This document shows, piece by piece, positions 3 through 23,256 of a stretch of 64,000 bases of DNA. The notes under the pieces are model-generated. The model worked only from the letters and a program-made list of their open reading frames with translations. It was not told where the DNA came from and did no database searches. Both the position numbers and the translations under genes were made by a program. The DNA is taken from contig JBILCY010000001.1 in NCBI GenBank assembly GCA_044352905.1, forward strand, positions 263,242 through 327,241, given 5' to 3'. The first letter of the stretch is position 1, and every line of letters starts with the position of its first letter. Source of the stretch: Terrimicrobiaceae bacterium (GTDB taxonomy: Bacteria > Verrucomicrobiota > Verrucomicrobiia > Chthoniobacterales > Terrimicrobiaceae).

Positions 3-1559
3 CTCACGAAGGCCGAGGTCGTGGCCGAATTCACCCGCGATACCAATAATGGCGGCGACTCCAATATCCTCTACTCGGGGAACCAACTCAAGCAGGCGAC
101 CTACCTCATCCGGGTAATCAACTGGCTGGCGAGCACGAACACCCCCGGGGTGCCGATGGCCCGCATCCAGCCGCGCAAGTCGGTGTCTGGTGGGTTTGCC
201 ACGATCTTGGATGTCCTAGGTTCATCGCAGGCGCTCATCCGGGTGGATTCCTACCTCGGGGCGAACCGCCACCACCTCCAAACGAACACGAAGCTCTGGT
301 CGCTTCCGGCCTTCTACGCTGGCAACTACCCTCGGTCGGTGGCCATGCACGAGCAACGCATCTGGTGGGCGGGAACGAGCCGGGAACCGACCACCCTCTG
401 GGGGAGCGAGATTGATAATTTTGAGAGCTTCCGAACCGGAGCGATTGCGAGCGACTCGGTGAAAATCAGCCTCGCCGCCTCGGAGGGCAACCGGATCACA
501 TGGATGCACTCGCAGCAAAACAGCCTACTCATCGGCACGACCGGCGACGAGTGGACGGTGAGTGCCGCCGATGTCGCCTCGGCGATCTCCGCCTCCAACT
601 TGGAGGCCAAGCGCCAATCCAGCTACGGCAGCAAATACATGCGGGCGGTCATCGTGAACGATGTCCTGCTTTTCATCCAGCGCAACGGGCGCAAGGTGCG
701 TGAGCTTGTCTACGAACTCAACAAGGACGGCTGGGTCGCGCCGGATCTGACCTTGCTGGCCGAACACGTCACCTCGGGCGAGATCGTGGAGATCGCCTAC
801 CAGCAACAGCCCGATGCCGTGCTGTGGTGCGCCCGTGGAGATGGCACGCTCATTGCCATGACCTACGAGCGCGACCAAAAGGTCGTGGGCTGGCATCGGC
901 ACATTATCGCGGACAATGCCGTGGTCGAGTCGGTCGCCACGATTTACGGCAATGGCACCGAGGATGAGGTGTGGATGGCCGTGAAGCGCAGCGTCTCCGG
1001 GCAGGACTACCGCACCATCGAGCGGTTCCCGCTTCTCTGGCGCAAATACATCGATGAACAGACAGCTAAGGACTCCCGCTACCTTGACGGCCATGTCTCT
1101 TTCGCCTCTGGAGCGGCCAATCGCTCGATCTCCGGCCTCGCGCATCTCAATGGCAAAACCGTCACGGTGGTGCAGGAAGGAAGCGCTCCCGTGACCCGCA
1201 CGGTTTCCGGCGGGGCGATCACCGTTCCCCAAGCCGCCGCAGGCTACCTCGGCCTGCCCTACACCTCGACGCTGCGGCCTATGAAGCTGGATGCTGATTA
1301 CGAGGATGGCACGGCGCAGTCGCGCAAGAAGCGCATCCACCAGGTCGTCGTTCGCACGCTCAAAAGCCGGGGAGGGGAGGTCCGCACCAATAACGGATCG
1401 TGGTATGCGCTGGCCGACACGCTCACCACCGGCGACCAAAAAATCATTCTCGGCGGTGCGTTCGGAATCGACGCGGACGTGGATGTGAGGCAAACTGCGC
1501 CTTATCCCATGTGCATCATCTCAATCCTTCCAAAATGGGACGCTTACGGCAATGAGTGA
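3..1559 (+). CDS. Phage tail structural protein, 5'-truncated by the window edge (beta-propeller-like; tail tubular protein B / 'stabilisation protein'-like)
   Basis: The reading frame is open from base 3, so the listed GTG at 21 is probably internal. Repeated strand-like motifs are present (IWWAGT, LLIGTTGDEW, VLLFIQRNG, AVLWCARGDGTLIAMTYERDQKVVGWHRH). It sits immediately upstream of the core/ejection-type genes. Family assignment is from memory only. Confidence 0.55.
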   Translation, partial: LTKAEVVAEFTRDTNNGGDSNILYSGNQLKQATYLIRVINWLASTNTPGVPMARIQPRKSVSGGFATILDVLGSSQALIRVDSYLGANRHHLQTNTKLWSLPAFYAGNYPRSVAMHEQRIWWAGTSREPTTLWGSEIDNFESFRTGAIASDSVKISLAASEGNRITWMHSQQNSLLIGTTGDEWTVSAADVASAISASNLEAKRQSSYGSKYMRAVIVNDVLLFIQRNGRKVRELVYELNKDGWVAPDLTLLAEHVTSGEIVEIAYQQQPDAVLWCARGDGTLIAMTYERDQKVVGWHRHIIADNAVVESVATIYGNGTEDEVWMAVKRSVSGQDYRTIERFPLLWRKYIDEQTAKDSRYLDGHVSFASGAANRSISGLAHLNGKTVTVVQEGSAPVTRTVSGGAITVPQAAAGYLGLPYTSTLRPMKLDADYEDGTAQSRKKRIHQVVVRTLKSRGGEVRTNNGSWYALADTLTTGDQKIILGGAFGIDADVDVRQTAPYPMCIISILPKWDAYGNE

Positions 1560-1974
1560 CATCCACATCCGCCACTACGACCCTTCCGACTACGAGATGC
1601 TCTCGGAGTGGTGGCACGCCCACGGCAAGCATCGCCGCCCGGAGCCGATGCTCCCGAAGTGCGGCGTCGTGTGCGAGATCGACGGCAAGCCAGTCTCCGC
1701 TTTGTTCCTCTACATGGACAACTCCTGCGGCATGTGCATGGCCGAACACGCCGTGAGCGCACCGGGCCTTTCCTTAAAAACCTCCCTGCTCGCCTTCCGG
1801 CACTCTATCGCCTGCCTTAAAAAAATCGCTTTGGACCTCGGCTACCACACGATGGCTGTCTTCACTTATCCAGGCATCGCCCGGGTGCTGGAGCGGCAGG
1901 GATTCCGCGAAGGAAACCGCAATCAAGTTTTTCTAATGAACTCACTACAGGAGGAACCGAAAAATGGGTGCTGA
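1552..1974 (+). CDS. Small (140 aa) GNAT-fold-like protein inside the virion-protein operon
   Basis: The ATG overlaps the upstream stop (ATGAGTGA). GNAT-like layout: IHIRHYDPSDYEMLSEWW ... CEIDGKPVSALFLYMD ... AVSAPGLSLKTSLLAFRHSIACLKKIALDLGYHTMAVFTY..IARVLERQGF. The usual R/Q-x-x-G-x-G/A acetyl-CoA loop is degenerate (APGLSLK). Confidence 0.45.
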   Translation: MSDIHIRHYDPSDYEMLSEWWHAHGKHRRPEPMLPKCGVVCEIDGKPVSALFLYMDNSCGMCMAEHAVSAPGLSLKTSLLAFRHSIACLKKIALDLGYHTMAVFTYPGIARVLERQGFREGNRNQVFLMNSLQEEPKNGC

Positions 1975-2914
1975 TGGCGGCGCATCAATAATGATAGCGG
2001 CATCAATCCTTGCCACTGCTGCTTCGACCGGCGTGGCCATGTATTCCGCAGACCAGCAGTCGAAATCGCAGGCCGCGATTGCTGAATACAACCGGATGGC
2101 CAACGAGCAGAACGCCGCGTGGCAGCGCATGGCTGCGGAGCGGGCCGCGCAGTCCGAGCAATACAACGCGCAACTGGCGATGTTCAACGCGCAGGCCCAG
2201 CAGTCCCAAGCCCAGTTCTCAGCACAGACGGCTCAATTTCAAAACGAGCAGCTTCGCCAGCAGTCGCAGTTCAGCGACATGCAGGCGCAAATCCAGAACA
2301 ATACCGCAGAGATGATGCGCCAGCAGGCTGCTGGCGAGGAGCAGCAGGCTCGCGAGCAGGCCAACCGCATTCGCGCCGAAAAGGACCGCATCCTCGGTCT
2401 CCAGCGCTCCCAATACGCCAAGGGTGGGGTGACAACGGAAGGCTCTCCGCTTGCAGTTTTGGCTGATACCGCCAGTATCTACGAAATGCAGGTTGCCGAC
2501 ACCCGACTCCTCGCCAATCTGGAGGCGAACAAGAAACGCTACGAGGCGGAAGTGACCGATTTTAATGCGGGCATCACCGCGCTGGAGGGGAAAATGATGC
2601 GCGACCAGGCGGGGATCAACGACACCGCCATTGGCTTCAATTTGTCGCAAGACCTCTTCGCTTCCAACATCAACCTCAATTCCGCAAAAATGTCTTACAA
2701 CGACGCGCAGTTTGCCGAGAAGGCCGCCGGGGCCGGATACCGGATCGCCATGCGCCAAGCGGCCATCGAGCAGATGGCTGGCAACGCCACCTCCCGCGCC
2801 ACCGCCATGGGAGGCTACTCCGCTCTGGCCAGCGGCATCGGGAGCATGGCCAACACCGGGATGAGTGCTTATGGCTACAAGAGGTCCACCACCAAACAAG
2901 GAGCAATAGGATAA
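1964..2914 (+). CDS. Phage internal virion-type protein: N-terminal TM helix plus Q/A/N-rich coiled coil
   Basis: The start lies 11 nt before the upstream stop. It has a hydrophobic N-terminus (IMIAASILATAASTGVAMY), about 130 aa of Q/A/N-rich heptad-like sequence and a G/A/S-rich C-terminus. Its position corresponds to the T7 gp14-type slot (inference). Confidence 0.55.
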   Translation: MGADGGASIMIAASILATAASTGVAMYSADQQSKSQAAIAEYNRMANEQNAAWQRMAAERAAQSEQYNAQLAMFNAQAQQSQAQFSAQTAQFQNEQLRQQSQFSDMQAQIQNNTAEMMRQQAAGEEQQAREQANRIRAEKDRILGLQRSQYAKGGVTTEGSPLAVLADTASIYEMQVADTRLLANLEANKKRYEAEVTDFNAGITALEGKMMRDQAGINDTAIGFNLSQDLFASNINLNSAKMSYNDAQFAEKAAGAGYRIAMRQAAIEQMAGNATSRATAMGGYSALASGIGSMANTGMSAYGYKRSTTKQGAIG

Positions 2915-4971
2915 TGCCCGCCATCCGACTCGCCGAAATTCCGAACGCAGGACCACGCGCAGCAACCGCCAGCACCGCAGGAATTGCCGCGCCGTCTGTT
3001 CCAAGATTTCAAGTAAACCCGGAGGTGGCAAAGCTTGGAGGGGCGGCCATGGTGGACTCGGGGTCCATGCGGAACGCCGCGCAGTCGATGCTCACGCAGA
3101 CGCTGGAGCTTGACGCGTTCTCTCAAGAGGCCAAAGCCGCAGCGAACTTCGCCGACTCGATCCAAGGAATCGGGAATGTGGCGATGGAATGGGGGCAAAA
3201 GTTTGCGAGAGCCAAAGACGACGCCGACATCGAGCGGGCACAGACGATCATGCAGGCGACTTGGCAGAAACAACTCACCGAGCAGGAAGGACTGCCTGTG
3301 GAAAAATGGCAGGAAAACTGGGCGAGAAATCAAGAGCAAGCGCAGCGTGCGCTTGGAGAGATCAAGTTTTCCCAAAACGCTGCCAGCCGACTCGGCCCGG
3401 AGCTGGATCGCTGGTCAACTATTTCCTCCGTAAACATCGACGGGAAAGCCAAGCAAAAGCAGGTCGAGAGCTTCCGACTCGATGCCGAGGTCGCCTACAA
3501 GCGCGAGCTGGCCAACGACAACCTCGGGGGTGCTTTTTCTGTCATCGACCGATTTGAAAAAAACGGAACGCTCTCGGCGGATGATGCCGAAAGATTCCGT
3601 TTCAATGTAGAACTGGAATCGATAAAAAAATCAAAGGCGGAGCGCAACGCCAACATTGAATCTGCCATCATTCTTGATCCCCAAAAATGGGAGGAAGACC
3701 TCACCCAAGGCATCAAGAGCGGTTCCAGCAAGCTCCAGACCGATCTCTCCAAGGAGGAGATGCTACGTTTCCTTGGAAACGCCCGCCAGCAGTCCCGATT
3801 TGCCGAGGTGGAAAAACTCTCCGCCGTTGAAGATGTCATGCTCAAAGGGGAATTCCAGAGCGTCGAGGAACTCGAAAAAGCCCTCGACCGTCCGGACCTC
3901 ATGCCCAATGTGAAGCTCCCCGAGCGGGCGGTTCAGTCCCTCAAGGCATCGTTCCTGCAATCCCCGGAGCGCCAAGCCGAATCTATCAAACTCCTCCCGG
4001 CCATAATCCAGAAAATCGAAGCCTTCGATGTTTCCTCCGACTCCAAGCTGGAAAACTATTTCGATCTCGCCAGCGAAATCCGCTCTCTCCCCGAAGGCTA
4101 CCGACGCGAACCGCTTGACTTGCTCTACGACAAATTCCGCCAATACAAGGATGGCCGGAAACCCGTTCCCGCCACCGCGCTTGGCCAAATCAAAAAGCAA
4201 GCCGCCGACGATTTGAAAAATGGCGGATTTGGAAAATGGAAAACCGGAAAGGATGGTGCGATCCCAGACGATCAACGACCAGGCTACATCGCCGCCAACC
4301 TGCGGTTCAGTCAAGAAATGACCTCGCTAGAGAATTGGGCCAAAGCCAACCCGGACAAAGCCAAGGTCGATACCGAGGTCTACAAGGCTCACAACGAGAT
4401 CATCACCGAACTCAATAAGGTCGATGCCGCCGCGGGCCGTCCCTCCACTCGCCGCCCGGTGGAAATCCCATCGATCTCTAAGCCGCCAGCCAATCCTTCC
4501 GGAATTCCCGATCCCGACGAAATCCTCCGCTCCGCGCCCGCAGGCGCATCCGCACCGGCTACGATCCGGCACAACAACCCCGGGGGCATCTACCCGAGCG
4601 GCCTAGCTTCCAAATACGGATCCACCGGATCATCCACCATCGGAGGCGGCCACAAGATTGCTTCGTTCCGCACGCCCACGGATGGGGCCGCTGCCCAATT
4701 TGCCCAACTCAACCGCCCTCAATACTTGGGCAAGCCCCTCCGCGAGGCGATCCGCACCTGGAGCGGCGGGAATTCCGTGGATTCCTACCTCGCCACGATC
4801 CAGCGCGAGGCTGGCATTTCGCCGGACACCGTCTTGACGCCTGCCCTGTTGGCCGACCCAGCAGTCGCCATCCCGTTGGCCAAGGCCATGGCTCGCCATG
4901 AGACAGGACGCCAGTTCCCGCTCGACGACACGGGTTGGAGGCAGGCCCATTCCAGAGTTTTTTCCACATGA
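2914..4971 (+). CDS. Phage internal virion/ejection-type protein (685 aa) with a C-terminal NNPG-motif domain
   Basis: TAATG overlap with the upstream gene. The first ~540 aa are long, charged and helical. The C-terminal ~135 aa (nt ~4564-4971) read IRHNNPGGIYPSG...GGGHKIASFRTPTDGAAAQFAQL...IRTWSGGNSVDSYLATIQREAGI...ARHETG. This resembles the R-N-N-N-P-G-N type domain I recall from phage virion proteins; its function is not established here. Confidence 0.55.
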   Translation: MPAIRLAEIPNAGPRAATASTAGIAAPSVPRFQVNPEVAKLGGAAMVDSGSMRNAAQSMLTQTLELDAFSQEAKAAANFADSIQGIGNVAMEWGQKFARAKDDADIERAQTIMQATWQKQLTEQEGLPVEKWQENWARNQEQAQRALGEIKFSQNAASRLGPELDRWSTISSVNIDGKAKQKQVESFRLDAEVAYKRELANDNLGGAFSVIDRFEKNGTLSADDAERFRFNVELESIKKSKAERNANIESAIILDPQKWEEDLTQGIKSGSSKLQTDLSKEEMLRFLGNARQQSRFAEVEKLSAVEDVMLKGEFQSVEELEKALDRPDLMPNVKLPERAVQSLKASFLQSPERQAESIKLLPAIIQKIEAFDVSSDSKLENYFDLASEIRSLPEGYRREPLDLLYDKFRQYKDGRKPVPATALGQIKKQAADDLKNGGFGKWKTGKDGAIPDDQRPGYIAANLRFSQEMTSLENWAKANPDKAKVDTEVYKAHNEIITELNKVDAAAGRPSTRRPVEIPSISKPPANPSGIPDPDEILRSAPAGASAPATIRHNNPGGIYPSGLASKYGSTGSSTIGGGHKIASFRTPTDGAAAQFAQLNRPQYLGKPLREAIRTWSGGNSVDSYLATIQREAGISPDTVLTPALLADPAVAIPLAKAMARHETGRQFPLDDTGWRQAHSRVFST

Positions 4972-7900
4972 CCAACCTCATCGACGACGAGACAGCATCA
5001 CGTTATTGGGCCGAGCGCGAATCCGCTCCCGAGGCCGAGCGTGAATCCCGCAACACCGCCCTCATGGATTGGGCGAAAGCCAAAAAAGCCGACCAGTTCC
5101 GGGCAGAGCAGGAGCAGGCCGAACGCGCCTATACCGACCTTGATGGATGGTGGAAGGAGAATGGCGCAGGCCATGTGTTTGAAAAAGACGAGGACCGCTT
5201 GGAAGTAGCCAACCGCCGATATATCGCAAATCAGTTCCAGCAGACTCCAGACCAGCAGGGCCGCTACTACCCGACTTACCGCGACGAGTATCTGCAAAAA
5301 ACCTTTGGCAAATCCGGACTTTCCGAGACCGAGACCTTCAACCTCATCCGCGATTCGCTCACCGCCCGCAAGGCCACCGAGGACGCCCTACGCGAACTCC
5401 CTGGTTCATTGGCCAAAGGGATGTTTTCCAATGTCGCCGAAGGAAAGACCCTTGATGAGACCGATTCGTGGTTCCTGTTCCAAGACTGGAAGGACCGCCA
5501 TGCTGACAAGCTCGCCACGCTACCCGATGGCTGGGAAGCCGCCATGCTTGACCGTGCAGTAAAGCTCCAAGCACGCACCGAGACAATGATGCGCGACCTT
5601 GCGCCGGAATCCAAACGTGCCTTCGACACCCTCCTCGCGTTCACTCGCCCGGAGGATGCTGCGGGCCTCCCGCCCGCCGACCGCGCCGATGTCGAGAACC
5701 TCTCCAAGGAATTTGCAAAGCTCGACCCGCAGCAACGCCAAGACATCTACTCCACGCTCTACTATGCCGCCGAGGCCGAGGGGGCTGGTATGGGCAAGGG
5801 ATTCTTTGAAAAGGTGGGCGAGGGGATCGCCCGAGGCGGGGTGAACATCTACGATGACATGGCGATGGTCGCCGAGGATCGCAACGCCCGCGAAAACCTC
5901 CGCCGCCTCCGCTCTGGAGAGATGGTCTACTCCGCGCCGAACAACATGGTCCGACGCGCCGATGAGTTTATCCAACTCGGAGCAGCAGAGCAGGGCGCTC
6001 CGCTCAACGAGGGCGTTCCCGCCGATGCCACCCCGCTCACCGAGGAGCAAAAAACCGAACTCATCGCCCAGAACGAGCAACGCCTCTCCGAACTCAAGGC
6101 GCTGCGCGAAATCCGCCAGATCGCCGATGGCACCATCGACCCCATCAAGACCGAGATGGACGGCGTCATGGGAGAAATCGTGCAGGGTGCCTATACCATT
6201 TCGCAATCACTCCCCTACATGGCAATAGCGGCGGTTCCCTACGTCGGCCTGCCCGCAGTGATGGGCGCACTCACGAACAGCAACTACCTCCGAATGCTCG
6301 ATGCCTATCAGGACATGGACCCCGATGCCGCGCTGACCATTTCAGCCGCCATCGCCGGCCCGCAGGCGTTCATCGAGCGCTTTCAAGCCAACGCCCTCAT
6401 CGGACGGTCTCCCGCCCTCAACGCCCTCATGCGGAAGATGACCGATGTCCGTATTCCCATCGCTGCACGCCTTGCCATCGGATACGGGGCCAATGTCGCC
6501 TACCAGACCGGGCAGGAATTCGTGCAGGAGGCTATGCCGGTCCTCGCCGACCAGATCGCCGCCGCCATCCGCGAGGATATGCCGGAGTTCGACGCCGGGA
6601 AGGCATGGGGTGCTTACGTCGATCAGATGCCAGACATTTTCTACTCCATGCTCTGGGCGGGACTCATCGGCACCGGAGCCAGCAGCTTCCGCGAACTCAA
6701 GCGCAACGGCCAATACGAACGCTCGCTGGGCGAACTTGAAATGGTCGGCATCACCGGCGAGGCCGCGCAGGACATCGCCGCCGAGCAAGACCCCGATGCC
6801 GCCACCTCCAAATTCCGCGAGGCATGGGACAAGCGCACCCCGGAGGACATCCAGGCGGGCATCGCCAAGCGAGCCGCCCAACTGGGAGCCGCACGCTCCA
6901 CCCAGCAAAACCCCGAACTTCCCGTCCGCCGCATCGAGCAGAACCAAGACGGCACACTCACCCACATCATCGAGCGCCCGGATGGCACCGTCCTCTACCG
7001 AACCAATGATTCCGACGCCGCCGACATCGCGCTGATCGAGCAGACGCGCCGGGTTGTTGCAAATGATTTGCAATCAGACATTTCCATTGTCACCGAAGTC
7101 CGCGACCAATGGCTTTCGGAAGACCCCACCAATGTCGCCATTGAGTCCGACACAACCACCGCTCAGCAAAAACTGGAGCAACTCCAAGCCGCCGGAAATG
7201 TCGCGCAGATCGAGGAACTCCACCGCCGCATCGCCACCTCCCTATACAAGGACACGCCTTACGACCAGATCAACATCCTCGGAGAGGCCACCGTCGAAGA
7301 CCTCGGGGAAATGGTTTTCCGTGGCGTCATCACGCTCAACCAAAATAGCCGCCCCGAAGATGCCCGCGAAGAGATTCACCATGTCGCCGTCCGCAAGGCG
7401 CTGATGAAAGGCTCGGTCACGCTCGAAACCCTGCGCGGTTGGCTCGACGCCACCGAAACCGCCCTGCCCGACAAGTTCCCCGGCCTCGTTCGCGACAACG
7501 AAAACGACATCGTCGAGTCCCTTGCGCGTGTCCAACGCGCCTACGAGGACGGCAAAATCAACGCCGAGGAGGAAACAAACCTGCCAGCCTCCTTTGTGGA
7601 CTACATCAAGCGAATGCTAAAAGTCTTCAAAGAAGTCCTCCAGCGGGCCGTGGCACTCCGTGGCGCTTTCAAGCAGGGAATCCTTCCTGGTGATTACGAA
7701 GCCTTCCTCGCCGAATCCGTGGGCCTCAACCAGCAGACCATGGTGGACACCACCCGGGAACGGGTAGTTGGGGATATTTTGACCAACGGTGGGCAGATGC
7801 TCATGGACTTCTCCATCGGCTCCCGCGCCAGTGCGGTATCAAATGATACTCCCTCCATCCGAGCCAGCAACGCCACGATCACCGGCCCTGCGAACTACAG

Positions 7901-14285: not shown

Positions 14286-14340
14286 AGCGACTCAAAATCG
14301 CGTTCCGCAAGGAGTGTCGGTTCGATCCCGACCGCCGGTA
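14286..14340 (+). pseudogene. 3' fragment of tRNA-Leu(CAA) (anticodon arm to discriminator base) = putative attR core
   Basis: Anticodon stem/loop GCGA-CTCAAAA-TCGC (U33, anticodon CAA, A37). Long variable arm tTCCgcaaGGAgt (type II tRNA). T arm GTCGG-TTCGATC-CCGAC. Acceptor 3' strand CGCCGGT plus A. No matching 5' acceptor strand or D arm upstream; AT-rich phage DNA is there instead. Confidence 0.7.
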
Positions 14341-14345
14341 GTTTT

Positions 14346-15650
14346 TCAGCCTAACACTTCCCTCATTCCGAGGCGTATTGCTTCGATTCCGTTTTGAAGT
14401 TGATCGGCTGTAGTGCAAAGGGGAGGCATGAAAACAATGGTGTCGAGCACCGGTCGGGTGAGGAGTCCGTGTTTTCGTGCTGCATGGCAGATTTGAGCGC
14501 CCACACGATCAGCCCACGGAAATGCTTCCCCATTTTTATGGCGAACCTCGATCCCGGCGATGAAGCCGCACTGGCGGATTTCATGGACGTGAGCTTCGTT
14601 CTTTAAGCCCTCCAATAAATCTGAAAGCAAAGAGATTTTTGGCTGAAGGTTTTCGAGCACGTTTTCTTCCTTGAAAACCTTCAGGCTTGCGAGAGCGGCG
14701 GCGCAGCCCAGCGGGTTGCCAGAGTAGCTGTGACCGTAATAAAATGTCTTCATCTCTTCGACGCGCCCTAGAAATGCCTCGAAAACCCGTTCGGTTGTGA
14801 GCGTCGCAGCCAGTGGAATGTAGCCGCCGGTGAGTCCTTTTGCGAGACACAGAAAATCCGGAATGACTCCCTCCTGCTCGCAGGCGAACATCGTGCCTGT
14901 GCGGCCGAAGCCGGTCATTACCTCGTCGAGAATAAGAAAAACACCGGCAGAGTCGCATTTGGCGCGGAGGACTTTGAGAAGACCTGGAGGCCACGTTCGC
15001 ATGCCTGCAGCACCTTGGATAAGGGGCTCGATCACCACGGCGGCAACATCGCCTTTGAGGAATCCGGGATGGCTATCGAGTTCATCAGGATCACTGATGC
15101 GACTGACAGGAAACGCATGCCCTGCAATTTTTTTGTGGAAGGTGCTTATCCCTCCAAGACTCGCGGCACCGAGAGTGTCGCCGTGGTAGGCGTTGTCGAA
15201 TGCGATGAAGCCTGAGCGCTCGGGGCGACCGCTGAGCTGCCAAAACTGAACAGCCATTTTCATTGCCGCCTCGATCGCTGTGGAGCCGTCGTCACTCAGA
15301 AAAACTCGCGGCAGGGCTCCGGAAGGGAAGAGCCCGGCAAGTGCCGTAGCGAGTTCAATGGCAGGTGCGTTTGTTGTGCCTAAAAAAGAGACATGGGAGA
15401 CTTGCCCGAGTTGCTCATGGAGCGCTTTGTTGATCTTGGGATGCGCGTGGCCGTGGATATTCGTCCAAATGGAGGAATTCCCATCGAGATAGCGGCGGCC
15501 TTCGCTGTCCTCAAGTATCGCTCCCTCGCCGCGAACGAGTATCAGTGGATCATGATCCAGGGCACACCAATCCTGCATGGGCGTGAAGGGATGCCAGAGG
15601 TGGGTTTTATCCAACTTTGACAGCTCGCCGGTGTTCCAAACATCTCGCAT
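14346..15650 (-). CDS. bioA: Adenosylmethionine-8-amino-7-oxononanoate aminotransferase
   Basis: HLWHPFTPMQDW, YLDGNSSIWTNIHGH, DDGSTAIEAAMKMA and AYHGDTLGA are class-III aminotransferase / BioA motifs. The internal start MRDVW was chosen; the ORF track extends to 15794. Confidence 0.9.
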   Translation of the reverse strand: MRDVWNTGELSKLDKTHLWHPFTPMQDWCALDHDPLILVRGEGAILEDSEGRRYLDGNSSIWTNIHGHAHPKINKALHEQLGQVSHVSFLGTTNAPAIELATALAGLFPSGALPRVFLSDDGSTAIEAAMKMAVQFWQLSGRPERSGFIAFDNAYHGDTLGAASLGGISTFHKKIAGHAFPVSRISDPDELDSHPGFLKGDVAAVVIEPLIQGAAGMRTWPPGLLKVLRAKCDSAGVFLILDEVMTGFGRTGTMFACEQEGVIPDFLCLAKGLTGGYIPLAATLTTERVFEAFLGRVEEMKTFYYGHSYSGNPLGCAAALASLKVFKEENVLENLQPKISLLSDLLEGLKNEAHVHEIRQCGFIAGIEVRHKNGEAFPWADRVGAQICHAARKHGLLTRPVLDTIVFMPPLCTTADQLQNGIEAIRLGMREVLG

Positions 15651-21369: not shown

Positions 21370-23256
21370 ATGTCTTCCATTCCCTCGCTCCTTTCCGCAC
21401 AGGAACTCAAACTCTCCTACGGCAATCACCTTTTGCTCGACGGCGTTTCGCTCACCGTCGCTCCAGGCGAGAAGCTCGGTCTCGTTGGTCGCAACGGATG
21501 CGGCAAGACGAGCCTCCTGCGAATACTAGCCGGAGAAAACGATCCGGATGCGGGCACGATCTCGCGGCGCCGTGGGTTAAGGGTCGGCTACTTGCCGCAG
21601 GAATTTGAACTCGATCCCGATGCCACGGTTTTAAAAAACATCGAGGACGGTGCCGCCGACTTGGTTGAATGGATGCGTCGCTACGAAAACGGCGAGGGAA
21701 GCGATCAGGAATTGCACCAACTACTGGAACTCATCCAGCATGCCGATGGATGGAATCTTCACGCCCGCATCAATGCCCTCGCTGGAGCACTCGATGCTCC
21801 GCCACTTGATGCGCTGGCAGGTTCCCTTTCCGGAGGTGAGAAGCGCCGCGTTTCTCTCTGCCGTGCGCTGGCATCCCAGCCGGATTTGTTGTTGCTGGAT
21901 GAACCCACAAACCATCTTGATGCGGACTCTATAAACTGGCTCGAAGACTTTCTGCGGGGTTTTTCCGGTGCGCTCATCTTTGTCACCCACGACCGATATT
22001 TTCTGGAGACAATTGCCACGCGCATTGTGGAGGTCAGTTTTGGCAAAGCCTATTCGCACCCCGGAAACTACACCGCCTATTTGGAGTCGCGCGCCTTGCG
22101 TCAGCAAATCGCCAATCAGAGCGAGAGGCGGCGTCAGCGTTTCATCAGGGCGGAACTTGATTTCGTGCGAGCAGGTGTTCGAGCCCAGCGTTCCAAGTCG
22201 AAGAAGCGTCTGGAATCATTTTACGAGATTGCCGGGCAGGAGGCTCCCCCGGAAGAGCGCGAGATGGATCTTCTTATTCCGCCACCGCCGGAAATTGGCA
22301 ATACAGCGGTGGAATTGGTCAATGCTGGGGTAAGGATCGAGAATGACCGCAATGAACGCTGGCTTTTCCGAGGGCTCGATCTTTCCCTTCGTCCCGGCCA
22401 ATGCACAGGTGTGGTGGGACGTAACGGTGTGGGAAAATCAACGCTGCTGCGCTTGTGCCTCGGCGAGCAGGAGCCAACGGAAGGAACGGTTACAATCGGC
22501 AAGAGGGTTGTGTTCAATTACATCGACCAAGGCCGTGTTTTGCTCAATGGAGCAAACACTGTCATTGCCGAAATCGGGGGCACGGGTGAGGCGGTGACCT
22601 TTGGCACACAGACACTGGGTGTGAGGGCATACTTGCGGCGATTCCTCTTCGACGAGGCACGCATCAATGAGAGGGTGGACAAGCTCTCTGGCGGCGAACG
22701 AGCGCGATTGACTCTGGCAAAAGTGCTTTGCCGTGGAGGCAACGTGATCGTTCTCGACGAGCCGACCAACGACCTTGATCTCGGAAGCCTGCGGATGCTT
22801 GAGGAGGCGCTTGCCACTTTCGACGGCACGGTGCTGGTCGTGAGCCATGACCGATATTTTCTGGACCGTGTGTGCGACCAGATTGTCGCCTTTGAGGAGG
22901 GAGGAATCCATATCCAGCCAGGCAATTACTCTTACTATCTGGAGAAAAAATCCCAACGGGAACGGCATTACAAAAATCTCGGTAAATCCTTTGTCGAACC
23001 TCCGGTGGAACAGACACCCAAGATTACCCCTCCGCAACGCAAACTGAGCTACAAAGAAAAGACGGATCTCGACGGCATGGAGCAAACAATCCTCGTCGCT
23101 GAAAAATGTGCTTCCGATTTGGAGGCGATGCTGAATGATCCCGCCTTCCACGCAACCCGAGCGCTGGAGGCTCCGGCGATGATTGCACGCCTTGCCGAAC
23201 AGCGCGCGGAAATCGAGCGGCTTTACGCCAGGTGGGAAGAATTATCGAATCTATGA
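21370..23256 (+). CDS. ABC-F family ATPase (Uup/EttA-like, two ABC domains plus a C-terminal coiled coil)
   Basis: GRNGCGKTS and GRNGVGKST Walker A motifs, LSGGEKRR and LSGGERAR signatures, no TM domain. Confidence 0.9.
   Translation: MSSIPSLLSAQELKLSYGNHLLLDGVSLTVAPGEKLGLVGRNGCGKTSLLRILAGENDPDAGTISRRRGLRVGYLPQEFELDPDATVLKNIEDGAADLVEWMRRYENGEGSDQELHQLLELIQHADGWNLHARINALAGALDAPPLDALAGSLSGGEKRRVSLCRALASQPDLLLLDEPTNHLDADSINWLEDFLRGFSGALIFVTHDRYFLETIATRIVEVSFGKAYSHPGNYTAYLESRALRQQIANQSERRRQRFIRAELDFVRAGVRAQRSKSKKRLESFYEIAGQEAPPEEREMDLLIPPPPEIGNTAVELVNAGVRIENDRNERWLFRGLDLSLRPGQCTGVVGRNGVGKSTLLRLCLGEQEPTEGTVTIGKRVVFNYIDQGRVLLNGANTVIAEIGGTGEAVTFGTQTLGVRAYLRRFLFDEARINERVDKLSGGERARLTLAKVLCRGGNVIVLDEPTNDLDLGSLRMLEEALATFDGTVLVVSHDRYFLDRVCDQIVAFEEGGIHIQPGNYSYYLEKKSQRERHYKNLGKSFVEPPVEQTPKITPPQRKLSYKEKTDLDGMEQTILVAEKCASDLEAMLNDPAFHATRALEAPAMIARLAEQRAEIERLYARWEELSNL

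Follow-up and report, generated by a model that had tools for sequence, protein, structure and literature searches.

A giant protein of a Verrucomicrobiota prophage as a probable ejection protein with a delimiter-marked array of exchangeable effector modules

Few models are known for the disarming of a cell by a phage in the opening seconds of an infection, ahead of phage gene expression (T4 Alt, N4 vRNAP). [quoted passage not shown] T7 gp16, the largest internal virion protein and the product of the last of the internal-protein genes, is helical, is free of cysteine and has a lytic transglycosylase domain that is not universal in its family (IVP-D). Members of this family host 'domains destined for the cytoplasm', among them N4 vRNAP and the virion protein H66 gp60, and Bbp10 of Bordetella phage BPP-1 is listed as a homologue (Hardies et al. 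2016, PMC4819975). Bbp10-type giants include BPP-1 Bbp10, Caulobacter RapA gp039c, Pseudomonas AF_016, Xanthomonas CP2 ORF24, Cobetia Carin1 gp32, Octadecabacter BD1_16 and vir555_00054. They contain 0-3 cysteines in 1,900-3,000 residues, and their conserved N-core and C part enclose a variable insert of 0-1,000 residues, the seat of polyvalent domains (PBECR1 in Bbp10, ART-PolyVal in BD1_16, LPD23 in AF_016, PBECR5 in Carin1).

Polyvalent proteins, in which several effector domains such as ART-PolyVal and MuF_C/PBECR are joined in one giant encoded beside virion genes and predicted to be delivered with the DNA, were described by Iyer, Burroughs, Anand, de Souza and Aravind (2017, PMC5512222), including kinase-bearing examples from Verrucomicrobia prophages with possible cassette recombination. 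The main text of that paper is silent on gp16, internal virion proteins, ejection, transmembrane segments and linkers, and its description is without an IVP-D scaffold, a delimiter or cysteine avoidance; zincin-like MPTase domains, pervasive but not obligatory in the class, were proposed as processing agents (Iyer et al. 2017, PMC5512222). The general idea of an ejected protein with effectors is already published (Iyer et al. 2017; Hardies et al. 2016), and the first-pass annotation of the locus presented here went too far in naming it as a candidate for an undescribed system. The unpublished aspect is the delimiter-marked, shuffled array of modules. MARTX and polymorphic toxins (CdiA with VENN, Rhs) offer an analogy only: they too join a conserved delivery scaffold to exchangeable effectors with short motif boundaries, and polymorphic toxins diversify by recombination, but all are secreted bacterial toxins and not phage virion proteins. 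MARTX toxins release their effectors with a cysteine protease of their own, the VENN motif of CdiA is a cassette seam, and polymorphic toxins carry C-terminal toxins with immunity genes.

The window, a stretch of 64,000 nucleotides from a Terrimicrobiaceae genome, contains ~14.3 kb of a prophage, 8.2 kb of which is a single giant gene (Table 1). The PVC-type host surmised from the sequence is indeed a Verrucomicrobiota bacterium, a group whose phages are barely studied. The reading frame is open throughout 4935/4968..13184 on the + strand and encodes 2,749 aa from a TTG or 2,738 aa from ATG 4968, the start used by public gene calls. The exact 2,738-aa protein is recorded in NCBI, JGI and ENA and recurs unchanged on five contigs that were assembled independently, among them one of 435,747 bp. 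It is therefore unlikely that a frameshift or a faulty assembly produced the long frame, and the gene is, as proposed, real and single. The module layout given in the first-pass annotation stood, but its residue numbers, counted from the TTG, are shifted by +11. Pfam scans of the whole protein and of seven segments found no peptidase family, nor was any RNAP family matched in Pfam.

Table 1. Features of the visible prophage arm, in window positions; residues of the giant are numbered from ATG 4968.
Feature	Position (nt)	Strand	Basis or remarks
Tubular tail protein B (nozzle), C-terminal part	21..1559	+	phrog_376 'tail protein', E=7e-112
140-aa protein, T7 gp13 position	1552..1974	+	phrog_17252
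316-aa internal virion protein, gp14 / IVP-B position	1964..2914	+	phrog_418 'internal virion protein', E=1.5e-8
685-aa protein, gp15 / IVP-C position	2914..4971	+	Position and size only
Giant gene, predicted IVP-D-type ejection protein with inserted effector cassettes	4968..13184	+	2,738 aa plus stop
N scaffold, aa 1-975	4968..7892	+	Conserved across family (BLASTP map, alignment A3)
Strongly hydrophobic segment MAIAAVPYVGLPAVMGALT, aa 418-436	6219..6275	+	Kyte-Doolittle 1.66
Module 1, aa 976-1237	7893..8678	+	NYSIG plus ART-PolyVal ADP-ribosyltransferase with large variable helical insert
Module 2, aa 1238-1466	8679..9365	+	NYSIG plus uncharacterised ~150-aa alpha/beta domain plus 'DENGNVIPLSQRF' tail
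Module 3, aa 1467-1714	9366..10109	+	NYSIG, shared leader, MuF_C/PBECR predicted RNase core, shared tail
MuF_C/PBECR predicted RNase core of module 3, aa 1554-1651	9627..9920	+	PF18819
C scaffold, aa 1715-2738	10110..13184	+	Opens with delimiter variant SYSIA at aa 1715; BLASTP map, alignment A2
C-core, about aa 2193-2656	11544..12935	+	Homologous to C-terminal domain of Bbp10-type (IVP-D) giants
Small protein, holin/spanin candidate	13214..13645	+	One hydrophobic segment, aa 62-80, Kyte-Doolittle 1.71
Endolysin (Peptidase_M15_4), last phage gene	13642..14223	+	phrog_17001, E=1.6e-23; PF13539, 32.3 bits
tRNA 3'-end fragment (T-arm plus acceptor strand)	14316..14340	+	gtcggttcgatcccgaccgccggta, read directly

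The giant sits between the internal virion protein genes and the lysis genes of the prophage. The tubular tail protein B gene at the left is truncated by the window start; on other contigs its full-length product has 1,013 aa, and by tblastn it matches the 'tail tubular protein B' of HTVC010P-type pelagiphages and others. The 140-aa protein is conserved among relatives, where its gene likewise precedes that of the internal virion protein. The 316-aa protein, with an N-terminal hydrophobic segment from aa 6, could not be matched directly to T7 gp14 or Bbp12 by hhalign; in vir555, phrog_418 is annotated at the equivalent position. For the 685-aa protein we found a weak match to phrog_873 (aa 548-667), no Pfam family and no match to T7 gp15 or Bbp11. 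To the right of the giant, the small protein (143 aa as an ORF, 123 aa in public gene calls) matched no PHROG or Pfam family. The tRNA fragment, where ARAGORN recognised no complete tRNA, probably represents the right attachment site, at which the prophage ends; host genes begin at 14346. The gene order around the giant (tail protein, 140 aa, 316 aa, 685 aa, giant, 143 aa, endolysin) is as had been claimed. The sequence of tubular tail protein B, small protein, phrog_418 protein, ~600-700-aa protein and giant is shared by the window, its 39-kb relatives, vir555 and BPP-1, which puts the giant where gp16 lies in a structural module conserved among podoviruses.

Homology to Bbp10-type proteins was found in the C scaffold, which matched no Pfam family. 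The C-core profile (A2) aligned with that of the Bbp10-type giants (A8) over 448 columns (hhalign, 99.7%, E=4.5e-26) and with Bbp10 alone at 96% and E=3e-9. The search for scaffold homologues among podovirus core proteins, which the first-pass annotation had proposed, thus led to the BPP-1 Bbp10 type. At E<=1e-3, 1,803 representative proteins, including many viral polyvalent proteins, are homologous to the C-core, and among the best 150 of these 1,803 matches the long proteins bear it at or close to the C-terminal end. The C-core model is all-helical (pLDDT 71.6) and had 60 fold matches in BFVD at E<=1e-3, the best at 1.4e-19; neither profile searches of PDB sequences nor a PDB fold search returned a match. 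With tblastn, 50,697 phage records yielded weak partial hits only, and scaffold homologues in GenBank phages were reached only via the intermediate vir555 and profile comparison. With hhalign, T7 gp16 gave no sign of direct homology (probability below 0.2%), and neither epsilon15 gp17 (E=0.022, probability 2%) nor the C-terminal domain of N4 gp50 (compared with the C scaffold; E=0.32 and 0.054) showed detectable similarity. It is through Bbp10 and its published assignment that the giant is connected to gp16. Of the helical C-terminal region of about 1,000 aa that had been described, the last 548 aa are predicted to be all-helical; the hydrophobic helices said to end it are three segments in aa 2594-2720 that reach ~1.3 on the Kyte-Doolittle scale.

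The N scaffold, likewise without a Pfam family, showed weak collinear hhalign similarity to Bbp10 aa 203-377 (E=4.5e-4), vir555_00054 aa 193-344 (E=0.003) and profile A9 (E=0.0027), all with probabilities of only 10-33%. These matches are only suggestive of homology to the Bbp10-type N-cores with their hydrophobic region. Within the N scaffold, the best-conserved part contains the sole strongly hydrophobic segment of the giant, in which P424, G427 and P429 are invariant in 44 sequences. We regard aa 418-436 as a candidate membrane-inserting helix. By Kyte-Doolittle, this is the one clear transmembrane-like helix of the giant; the other segments quoted earlier as hydrophobic helices of the N region fall below 1.2.

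Composition also distinguishes the protein. The giant has no cysteine in 2,738 aa, for which the chance is 3.5e-14 given the 1.1% cysteine of the window's host-side ORFs, and the family as a whole has four in 167,088 residues. Cysteine is likewise absent from the 316-aa and 685-aa proteins, T7 gp15 and gp16, N4 gp50 (3,500 aa), gp51 and gp52, and Bbp11 and Bbp12. Such avoidance fits passage through the tail, and a near-total lack of cysteine may offer an inexpensive way to recognise ejected proteins from sequence. The avoidance also bears on whether the giant is a virion protein at all, rather than a toxin or exclusion factor that is expressed from the lysogen or otherwise secreted. The toxin-like domains, and a location close to the end of the prophage, a frequent site of morons, would suit such a factor; however, the giant gene begins at 4968, before the structural gene ahead of it has ended (4971), and has the same orientation within the late operon, its position is conserved in free viral contigs of 37-41 kb, and no gene, immunity-like or other, lies between it and the lysis genes. 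We consider a non-virion role very improbable.

We think it probable, from its sequence and setting, that the giant is instead the largest internal (ejection) protein, effector payload included, of a temperate ~39-kb short-tailed Verrucomicrobiota phage, and the counterpart of BPP-1 Bbp10, T7 gp16 and N4 gp50. A few copies would be packed in the capsid beside the 316-aa and 685-aa proteins, and on infection they would be expelled unfolded via the tail, ahead of the DNA. The N scaffold, with its hydrophobic helix, and the helical C-core may help to build or anchor a trans-envelope conduit at the inner membrane. The central payload (an H-Y-D ADP-ribosyltransferase, an unknown domain and a PBECR-type RNase) would refold in the cytoplasm and act before any phage gene is expressed, modifying host proteins and cutting RNA so as to weaken defences or seize control of the cell. 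Compared with its counterparts, the giant is twice the size of gp16 and had no Pfam or PHROG match to a lytic transglycosylase domain, and it carries exchangeable cassettes where N4 gp50 has one fixed RNA polymerase. Bbp10-type giants are without N-Y-S-I-[GAS] delimiters and have one Pfam domain detected per insert, as against an array of 2-5 delimited modules in the family of the giant.

The modules themselves match the effector families of polyvalent proteins in two of three cases. Module 1, described earlier as ART-like, scored 19.8 bits in a scan of the whole protein, but when scanned alone it reached 32.2 bits against PF18760 (ART-PolyVal; Tox-ART-HYD2 clade), above the gathering cutoff of 31.2, and all 17 modules homologous to it match this family. 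Within these 17 modules, an H-Y-D triad, read from the alignment and not from strands on a structure, comprises invariant H983 and Y1011 and near-invariant D1209; in the ART-PolyVal definition, the active-site His, Tyr and Asp belong to strands 1, 2 and 5. Module 3, previously termed MuF-C/PBECR-like, matched PF18819 at 83-87 bits against a gathering cutoff of 27.6, and its candidate motifs KKH and IVSL align with KH and IVSS/IISS of P0122 and P0146. Judging from conserved residues only, we predict the ART and RNase modules to be catalytically competent. Module 2, rightly set down as without known identity, had no Pfam family and no significant PDB fold match (Foldseek best E=2.9; AF2 model pLDDT 84.9); it matched phrog_2579 (E=7e-19), and its homologues include solo genes of ~160 aa, some on ~40-kb contigs. 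An R-S-E ADP-ribosyltransferase, which would have a conserved Arg, Ser-x-Ser and Glu-x-Glu as well as an ART fold, was considered for module 2 and rejected: YR and a Ser are conserved but a G-E-G-E stretch is not, and ART structures appeared in the Foldseek top 30 only at TM <= 0.21. By the criterion of at least two distinct effector domains, the giant, with ART-PolyVal, MuF_C and a third globular module, is a polyvalent protein as originally proposed, and its reading as a virion-packaged multi-effector protein is well supported computationally.

A purely structural giant, in which the protein forms a capsid core or conduit and the centre serves assembly, DNA condensation or periplasmic steps, would accord with the ~2,000 of 2,738 residues that form a conserved helical scaffold without enzyme signature, and the MuF_C of phage Mu itself is thought inactive. 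The family makes this improbable, since the centre is its least conserved part. In P0001 the N and C scaffolds are 80% and 84% identical to those of the giant and the centre is without similarity, having been replaced wholesale, and MZH0603 is nearly without insert. Further, the inserted domains (ART, kinase, GNAT, PBECR, LPD3) represent enzyme families that conflict systems use. The 259 modules that we counted among 112 relatives form 45 clusters and are arranged in 72 architectures; of the 23 commonest module kinds, 13 are without a Pfam family. Third-position GC (GC3) is 0.44-0.54 in the modules (0.515 in module 1) versus 0.71-0.74 in the scaffolds. Module 2 has 93.4% nucleotide identity to its equivalent in L021, though the scaffolds are only ~69% identical.

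Every module in the family opens with N-Y-S-I-[GAS], as had been seen for the three modules of the giant (N-Y-S-I-G at aa 976, 1238 and 1467). The delimiter occurs 171 times in 120 hits, compared with 7.2 in shuffles. We therefore picture the payload of the ejection protein as a cassette array in which this peptide, lying in a flexible linker, opens each module; modules are exchanged between phages, so that related phages bear different effector sets on one delivery scaffold.

What the peptide does admits of two readings. One, which we rate as a definite possibility short of a likelihood, is that the delimiter, together with the leader and tail, forms in-frame recombination seams between co-infecting phages and that the peptide itself is functionless. 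An identical module type follows different modules in different phages, and the leader and tail of module 3 are common to M3-type modules with unrelated cores. At the M2/M3 junction, 28 nt are 96% identical in L021, where another module comes next. Relatives encode a RecT-like annealing protein, and recombinational variability was raised for Verrucomicrobium polyvalent loci (Iyer et al. 2017, PMC5512222). This reading is opposed by conservation at the amino-acid level: there is no single DNA word, the delimiter Ser being AGC at 44% and TCC at 36% of sites, two unlinked codon families, and a stretch of 15 nt whose codons vary offers very little length for homologous exchange. Nor were silent motif-bearing cassettes seen near the gene.

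The other reading, more doubtful in our view, takes the delimiter as a proteolytic or autoproteolytic site, cut after ejection or during head maturation, that would free the effectors from the membrane-bound scaffold. The peptide is invariant, with varying codons, among relatives whose scaffolds are only ~27% identical. It lies in a low-complexity, low-confidence linker (pLDDT below 50 at the module 2 start) and is confined to the giant ORFs, with no hit in six frames of 967 kb of flanking sequence. That polyvalent proteins separate on deployment has been argued before (Iyer et al. 2017, PMC5512222). Against cleavage, no protease domain, the zincin-like MPTase included, was found in the giant, none of the neighbouring genes examined was recognised as encoding a protease, and N4 gp50 is packaged unprocessed. 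To our knowledge, N-Y-S-I-G matches no known cleavage motif. We only tentatively entertain a signal that would serve both purposes, cleaved either autocatalytically or by a protease of the host or the phage to release the cassettes and also acting as the point of their in-frame exchange. Cleavage would refine the ejection-protein interpretation instead of replacing it.

The family amounts to a natural library of at least 45 interchangeable module kinds in 72 arrangements on one scaffold. The delimiter makes module boundaries readable from sequence, so candidate early effectors and anti-defence domains can be harvested from metagenomes, and it gives a testable hypothesis on the processing of ejected proteins. 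If it proved to be both cleaved and an exchange seam, the family would constitute a programmable, MARTX-like phage delivery platform with dozens of uncharacterised payloads. The well-studied phage BPP-1, with PBECR1 inserted at the corresponding point, provides a culturable system for testing the general design. The family-wide role of N-Y-S-I-G as a module delimiter had been overlooked when the motif was recorded in this giant.

Our best-supported reading of the giant, the 2,738-aa prophage protein, is an ejection protein of the IVP-D type (T7 gp16-type internal virion proteins) with a payload bay in its middle; we infer its packaging, ejection, activity and targets. It is encoded by a single, uninterrupted open reading frame on the forward strand, running from TTG 4935 or ATG 4968 to position 13184. 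NCBI, JGI and ENA all contain a protein identical to the product of ATG 4968, found on five contigs that include one of 435,747 bp; a frameshift or assembly artefact is therefore unlikely, and the giant ORF described in the first-pass annotation is real. Residue numbers in that annotation, counted from the TTG, lie 11 above the ATG-based numbers used here. An identical gene is also found at the extreme end of a 44,391-bp contig, L112 (GCA_043529525.1, JBFDDH010002468.1), which ends on the last codon; the assembly may have broken there, at the edge of the prophage, or the phage genome may have been assembled separately.

As first noted, the gene follows smaller core-like proteins and precedes the lysis genes, and the tail-to-giant order is common to the window, the GenBank phage record vir555 and Bordetella phage BPP-1. 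The annotated order in vir555 is portal, scaffold, capsid, tubular A, tubular B, small protein, phrog_418 protein, ~570-720-aa protein and giant, of which the tail-to-giant part is present in BPP-1 as bbp13, bbp12, bbp11 and bbp10. Comparisons of the 316-aa and 685-aa upstream proteins with BPP-1 Bbp12 and Bbp11, respectively, were not significant, and tblastn of the 316-aa protein against GenBank phages gave no match. On the downstream side, the small hydrophobic protein matched no family and is a candidate holin or spanin. The tRNA fragment, at which ARAGORN found no complete tRNA, probably represents the right attachment site, left by integration of the prophage into a tRNA gene. The closest relative, P0001, lies on a 38.9-kb contig that was recovered in different circular permutations and on which the gene order of the window is followed by an integrase, indicating a temperate phage of ~39 kb. 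The proposed PVC-type host agrees with two observations: all named close homologues of the host ABC-F protein in the window come from Verrucomicrobiota, as do 9 of the 10 genome loci of the giant's relatives, found in MAGs named Terrimicrobiaceae, Verrucomicrobiia, Akkermansia, Chthoniobacter and Opitutia.

Features of the prophage arm (window coordinates unless a locus is named) and giants of cultured podoviruses found by tblastn from the vir555 giant C-terminus
Feature	Position	Residues or length	GC3	Match or remark
Tubular tail protein B, C-terminal part	upstream of giant			phrog_376; 'tail tubular protein B' of HTVC010P-type pelagiphages and others
140-aa protein	upstream of giant, between tail protein B and 316-aa protein	140 aa		
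316-aa protein	upstream of giant	316 aa		phrog_418 'internal virion protein'
685-aa protein	directly upstream of giant	685 aa		
N scaffold	4968-7892	aa 1-975	0.74	
Module 1		aa 976-1237	0.52	opened by N-Y-S-I-G
Module 2	8679-9365	aa 1238-1466	0.54	opened by N-Y-S-I-G
Module 3		aa 1467-1714	0.44	opened by N-Y-S-I-G
Leader of module 3	9366-9470			
Tail of module 3	10020-10109			
C scaffold	10110-13181	aa 1715-2738	0.71	
C-core model ma0f9313f50f3	11538-13181			
Small protein	13214-13645			one strongly hydrophobic segment, three cysteines; precedes endolysin; public gene calls start later (123 aa)
M15 endolysin	downstream of small hydrophobic protein			followed by host genes
tRNA 3'-end fragment	14316-14340			gtcggttcgatcccgaccgccggta; between endolysin gene and first host gene
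BPP-1 Bbp10	insert: L098, locus 6328-6900	2,052 aa		insert PBECR1, 36.9 bits
Caulobacter RapA gp039c		2,039 aa		
Pseudomonas AF_016	insert: L107	2,213 aa		insert LPD23
Xanthomonas CP2 ORF24		2,478 aa		
Cobetia Carin1 gp32	insert: L110	2,854 aa		insert PBECR5
Octadecabacter BD1_16	insert: L109	2,986 aa		insert ART-PolyVal, 58.9 bits

Assignment of the giant to the T7 gp16 slot did not gain support from direct homology. Scaffold and neighbour profiles gave hhalign probabilities below 0.2% against T7 gp16, gp15 and gp14, and the T7 proteins and those of this phage are assigned to different PHROGs. Both scaffolds lack a Pfam or PHROG family and a relative by sequence in the PDB, and the whole giant and four profiles found nothing below E=0.09 among PDB sequences. 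No similarity was detected between the C scaffold and either the C-terminal domain of N4 gp50 or epsilon15 gp17. The expectation that the scaffolds would have homologues among podovirus core proteins, which failed for T7 gp16, held for the C scaffold and the Bbp10-type giants. The 1,975-aa protein in the giant's slot of vir555, which carries an ART module, has a C-terminus that aligns to the C scaffold (E=4e-5) and that, by tblastn, finds the giants of cultured podoviruses; a nine-sequence profile of podovirus giant C-termini matches the C scaffold profile over 448 columns (99.7% probability, E=4.5e-26). Bbp10 itself has been listed as an IVP-D (T7 gp16 family) homologue in the epsilon15 subgroup (Hardies et al. 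2016, PMC4819975). The conserved hydrophobic region of the N scaffold also aligns collinearly, if weakly, with Bbp10 and vir555.

Used as a query, the C-core (about aa 2193-2656) recovered, out of 1.84 billion, 1,803 representative proteins at E<=1e-3. Of the 150 best hits listed, the long ones (about 2,000-3,400 aa) carry it at or near the C-terminal end, and shorter matches may be fragments. The structure model of this region matched 60 BFVD entries at E<=1e-3, the top 50 being mostly final pieces of split giant viral proteins, and the names among the matches listed include ART-PolyVal, LPD and 'crystallin motif' proteins and one 'structural protein'. Compared by fold with the PDB, the model gave a best E of 0.05 at TM 0.12. 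The top matches there, none significant, are nearly all multipass transporters (MFS, MATE, ClC; TM ~0.1), and we do not take them as homologues; they probably reflect a long-helix bundle.

In the Bbp10-type proteins, the N-core and the C part are conserved and are separated by an insert whose length ranges from 0 to ~1,000 aa. They resemble the giant in carrying polyvalent domains at this same insertion point; they differ from it in that the N-Y-S-I delimiter is absent. In the records of the cultured podoviruses, the giants are annotated as 'crystallin motif protein', 'lysin', 'lysis protein' or 'hypothetical', names that do not reflect the polyvalent domains.

Around 60 proteins of 2,000-3,070 aa, mostly from 10-41-kb contigs, are like the giant over their first ~950 and last ~1,025 residues and differ in the centre; a 44-sequence alignment has no invariant column between D927 and S1717. 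P0001, for instance, is 80% identical in the N scaffold and 84% in the C scaffold, with no detectable similarity in the centre. The scaffolds are themselves mosaic, with identities (N/C) of 49%/83% in P0007 and 80%/40% in P0014. Module 2 is 93.4% identical at the nucleotide level to its counterpart in the relative L021 over 681 nt, though the C scaffold of L021 is only 68.7% identical; in at least this case, exchange was recent. A recent transfer of module 3 was considered and rejected: the 97% identity to L085 is confined to a common leader and tail, and full-length identity is 30%. When 112 family proteins were cut at their delimiters, 259 modules in 45 clusters and 72 architectures resulted, the giant's combination being unique in this sample. 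Representative modules include two ART-PolyVal subfamilies, DUF7178, LPD3, Kinase-PolyVal, GNAT, MuF_C and a weak ParB_N-like module; 13 of the 23 commonest clusters matched no Pfam family. In the window, G+C drops from 0.57-0.64 in the flanks to 0.44-0.53 over nt ~7900-10000, and the low-GC3 payload (7893-10109) looks like a recent import from lower-G+C donors, with amelioration still to come.

The three central modules and the characters first given to them (ART-like, unknown, and MuF-C/PBECR-like) were upheld. Scanned alone, module 1 reaches 32.2 bits for ART-PolyVal against a Pfam gathering cutoff of 31.2; its score in the whole protein is weak because of a variable helical insert. All 17 homologous modules match this family, with H983 and Y1011 invariant and D1209 nearly so, and the H-Y-D configuration is a defining feature of the ART-PolyVal clade (Iyer et al. 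2017, PMC5512222); we identify module 1 as an ART-PolyVal domain. Module 2 has no Pfam family, and its confident structure model (pLDDT 84.9) found nothing significant by fold in the PDB (best E=2.9). In PHROG it hits the C-terminal part of phrog_2579, and its domain, with conserved motifs YR, DW[VI][TS]xS and WWDGND..EWG, is found also within further polyvalent proteins and as stand-alone genes of ~160 aa, of which some lie on ~40-kb contigs (P0131, P0134, P0135, P0137, P0138). The peptides 'VFRAV / WVTPS / GEGEY' had raised a second, R-S-E type ART as a candidate for module 2; we rejected it as unsupported, given the lack of conservation of the Glu pair and a fold search that was not significant. 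Module 3 contains a MuF_C/PBECR domain (87 bits), in which His and Ser are positioned as in two homologues, a placement consistent with the active configuration of Iyer et al. (PMC5512222). Modules of its type share a ~35-aa leader, NYSIG-[IF]APNGKPSNL..EEQALA.SPEF, and a ~30-aa tail, VNPESVTVKTDENGEPLASEIARFRQET, around unrelated cores (L085, L060, L053), as if these were adaptor sequences retained while the core is swapped. All three modules of the giant end in a '[DE]ENG..[IP]..S..F' tail (aa 1202-1237, 1441-1466 and 1690-1714), which in unrelated polyvalent proteins (P0121-P0143) finishes in 'D[IV]R[FY]' in place of 'NYSIG', suggesting that polyvalent proteins in general join their domains by such a connector, the ending of which is specific to each family.

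N-Y-S-I-G opens each module of the giant and a variant, S-Y-S-I-A, opens the C scaffold. The pattern [NSDT]-Y-S-[IVL]-[GAS] occurs 171 times in 120 hits, compared with 7.2 in shuffled sequences; it is restricted to the scaffold family and absent from 4,600-aa polyvalent proteins with the same modules. Silent delimiter-bearing cassettes near the gene were discounted, the six-frame search having found none elsewhere in the window or in the 967 kb that flank giant genes. The delimiter is unstructured in the module 2 model, and the residues ahead of it are low-complexity and vary with the preceding module. That the delimiter is a cleavage site seems unlikely to us. Its codons vary (Ser is AGC in 44% and TCC in 36%), which places the constraint on the peptide and rules out a fixed DNA word as a recombination signal; a pure recombination seam is conceivable, if doubtful. 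These two roles can coexist, and the probability that they leave goes to a structural or docking role. The 39-kb relative L001 also encodes a RecT-like single-strand annealing protein (22345-23151), which could favour exchange where homology is short, as at the module seams.

Among proteins studied by experiment, N4 gp50 comes closest to the giant, with its membrane-associated N-terminal domain, central enzyme and C-terminal domain. In the current model, gp50 is ejected unfolded; its payload then refolds in the cytoplasm, and its N-terminal domain remains at the inner-membrane complex. In the giant, exchangeable effectors would take the place of the fixed polymerase of gp50 as the putatively ejected payload. 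The claim of an undescribed system had to be withdrawn: the polyvalent-protein concept, its presence in Verrucomicrobia prophages and the idea of cassette-like variation are already published (Iyer et al. 2017, PMC5512222), as are IVP-D proteins hosting cytoplasmic domains (Hardies et al. 2016, PMC4819975). The words gp16, internal virion, ejection, transmembrane and linker are all absent from the main text of Iyer et al. (PMC5512222). Three elements appear to be new, in that we did not find them in the open-access literature searched: (i) an explicit combination of these two published concepts, with the Bbp10/IVP-D scaffold as an insertion hot spot for polyvalent domains, even in BPP-1, (ii) the peptide delimiter and the scale of the shuffled module repertoire, and (iii) the near-absence of cysteine in the giant's family.

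This family has 4 cysteines in 167,088 residues, and the giant and the 316-aa and 685-aa proteins have none; at the 1.1% of host-side ORFs in the window, the chance of finding no cysteine in 2,738 residues is 3.5e-14. Among other proteins with proven or presumed ejection, cysteine is likewise absent from T7 gp15 and gp16, from N4 gp50 (3,500 aa), gp51 and gp52, and from BPP-1 Bbp11 and Bbp12, and the Bbp10-type giants have 0-3; in T7 and epsilon15, tail and tailspike proteins contain 5-15. We suggest that the absence marks proteins that have to pass the tail and cross the periplasm in an unfolded state, and low cysteine content may serve as a sequence marker by which to recognise ejected proteins.
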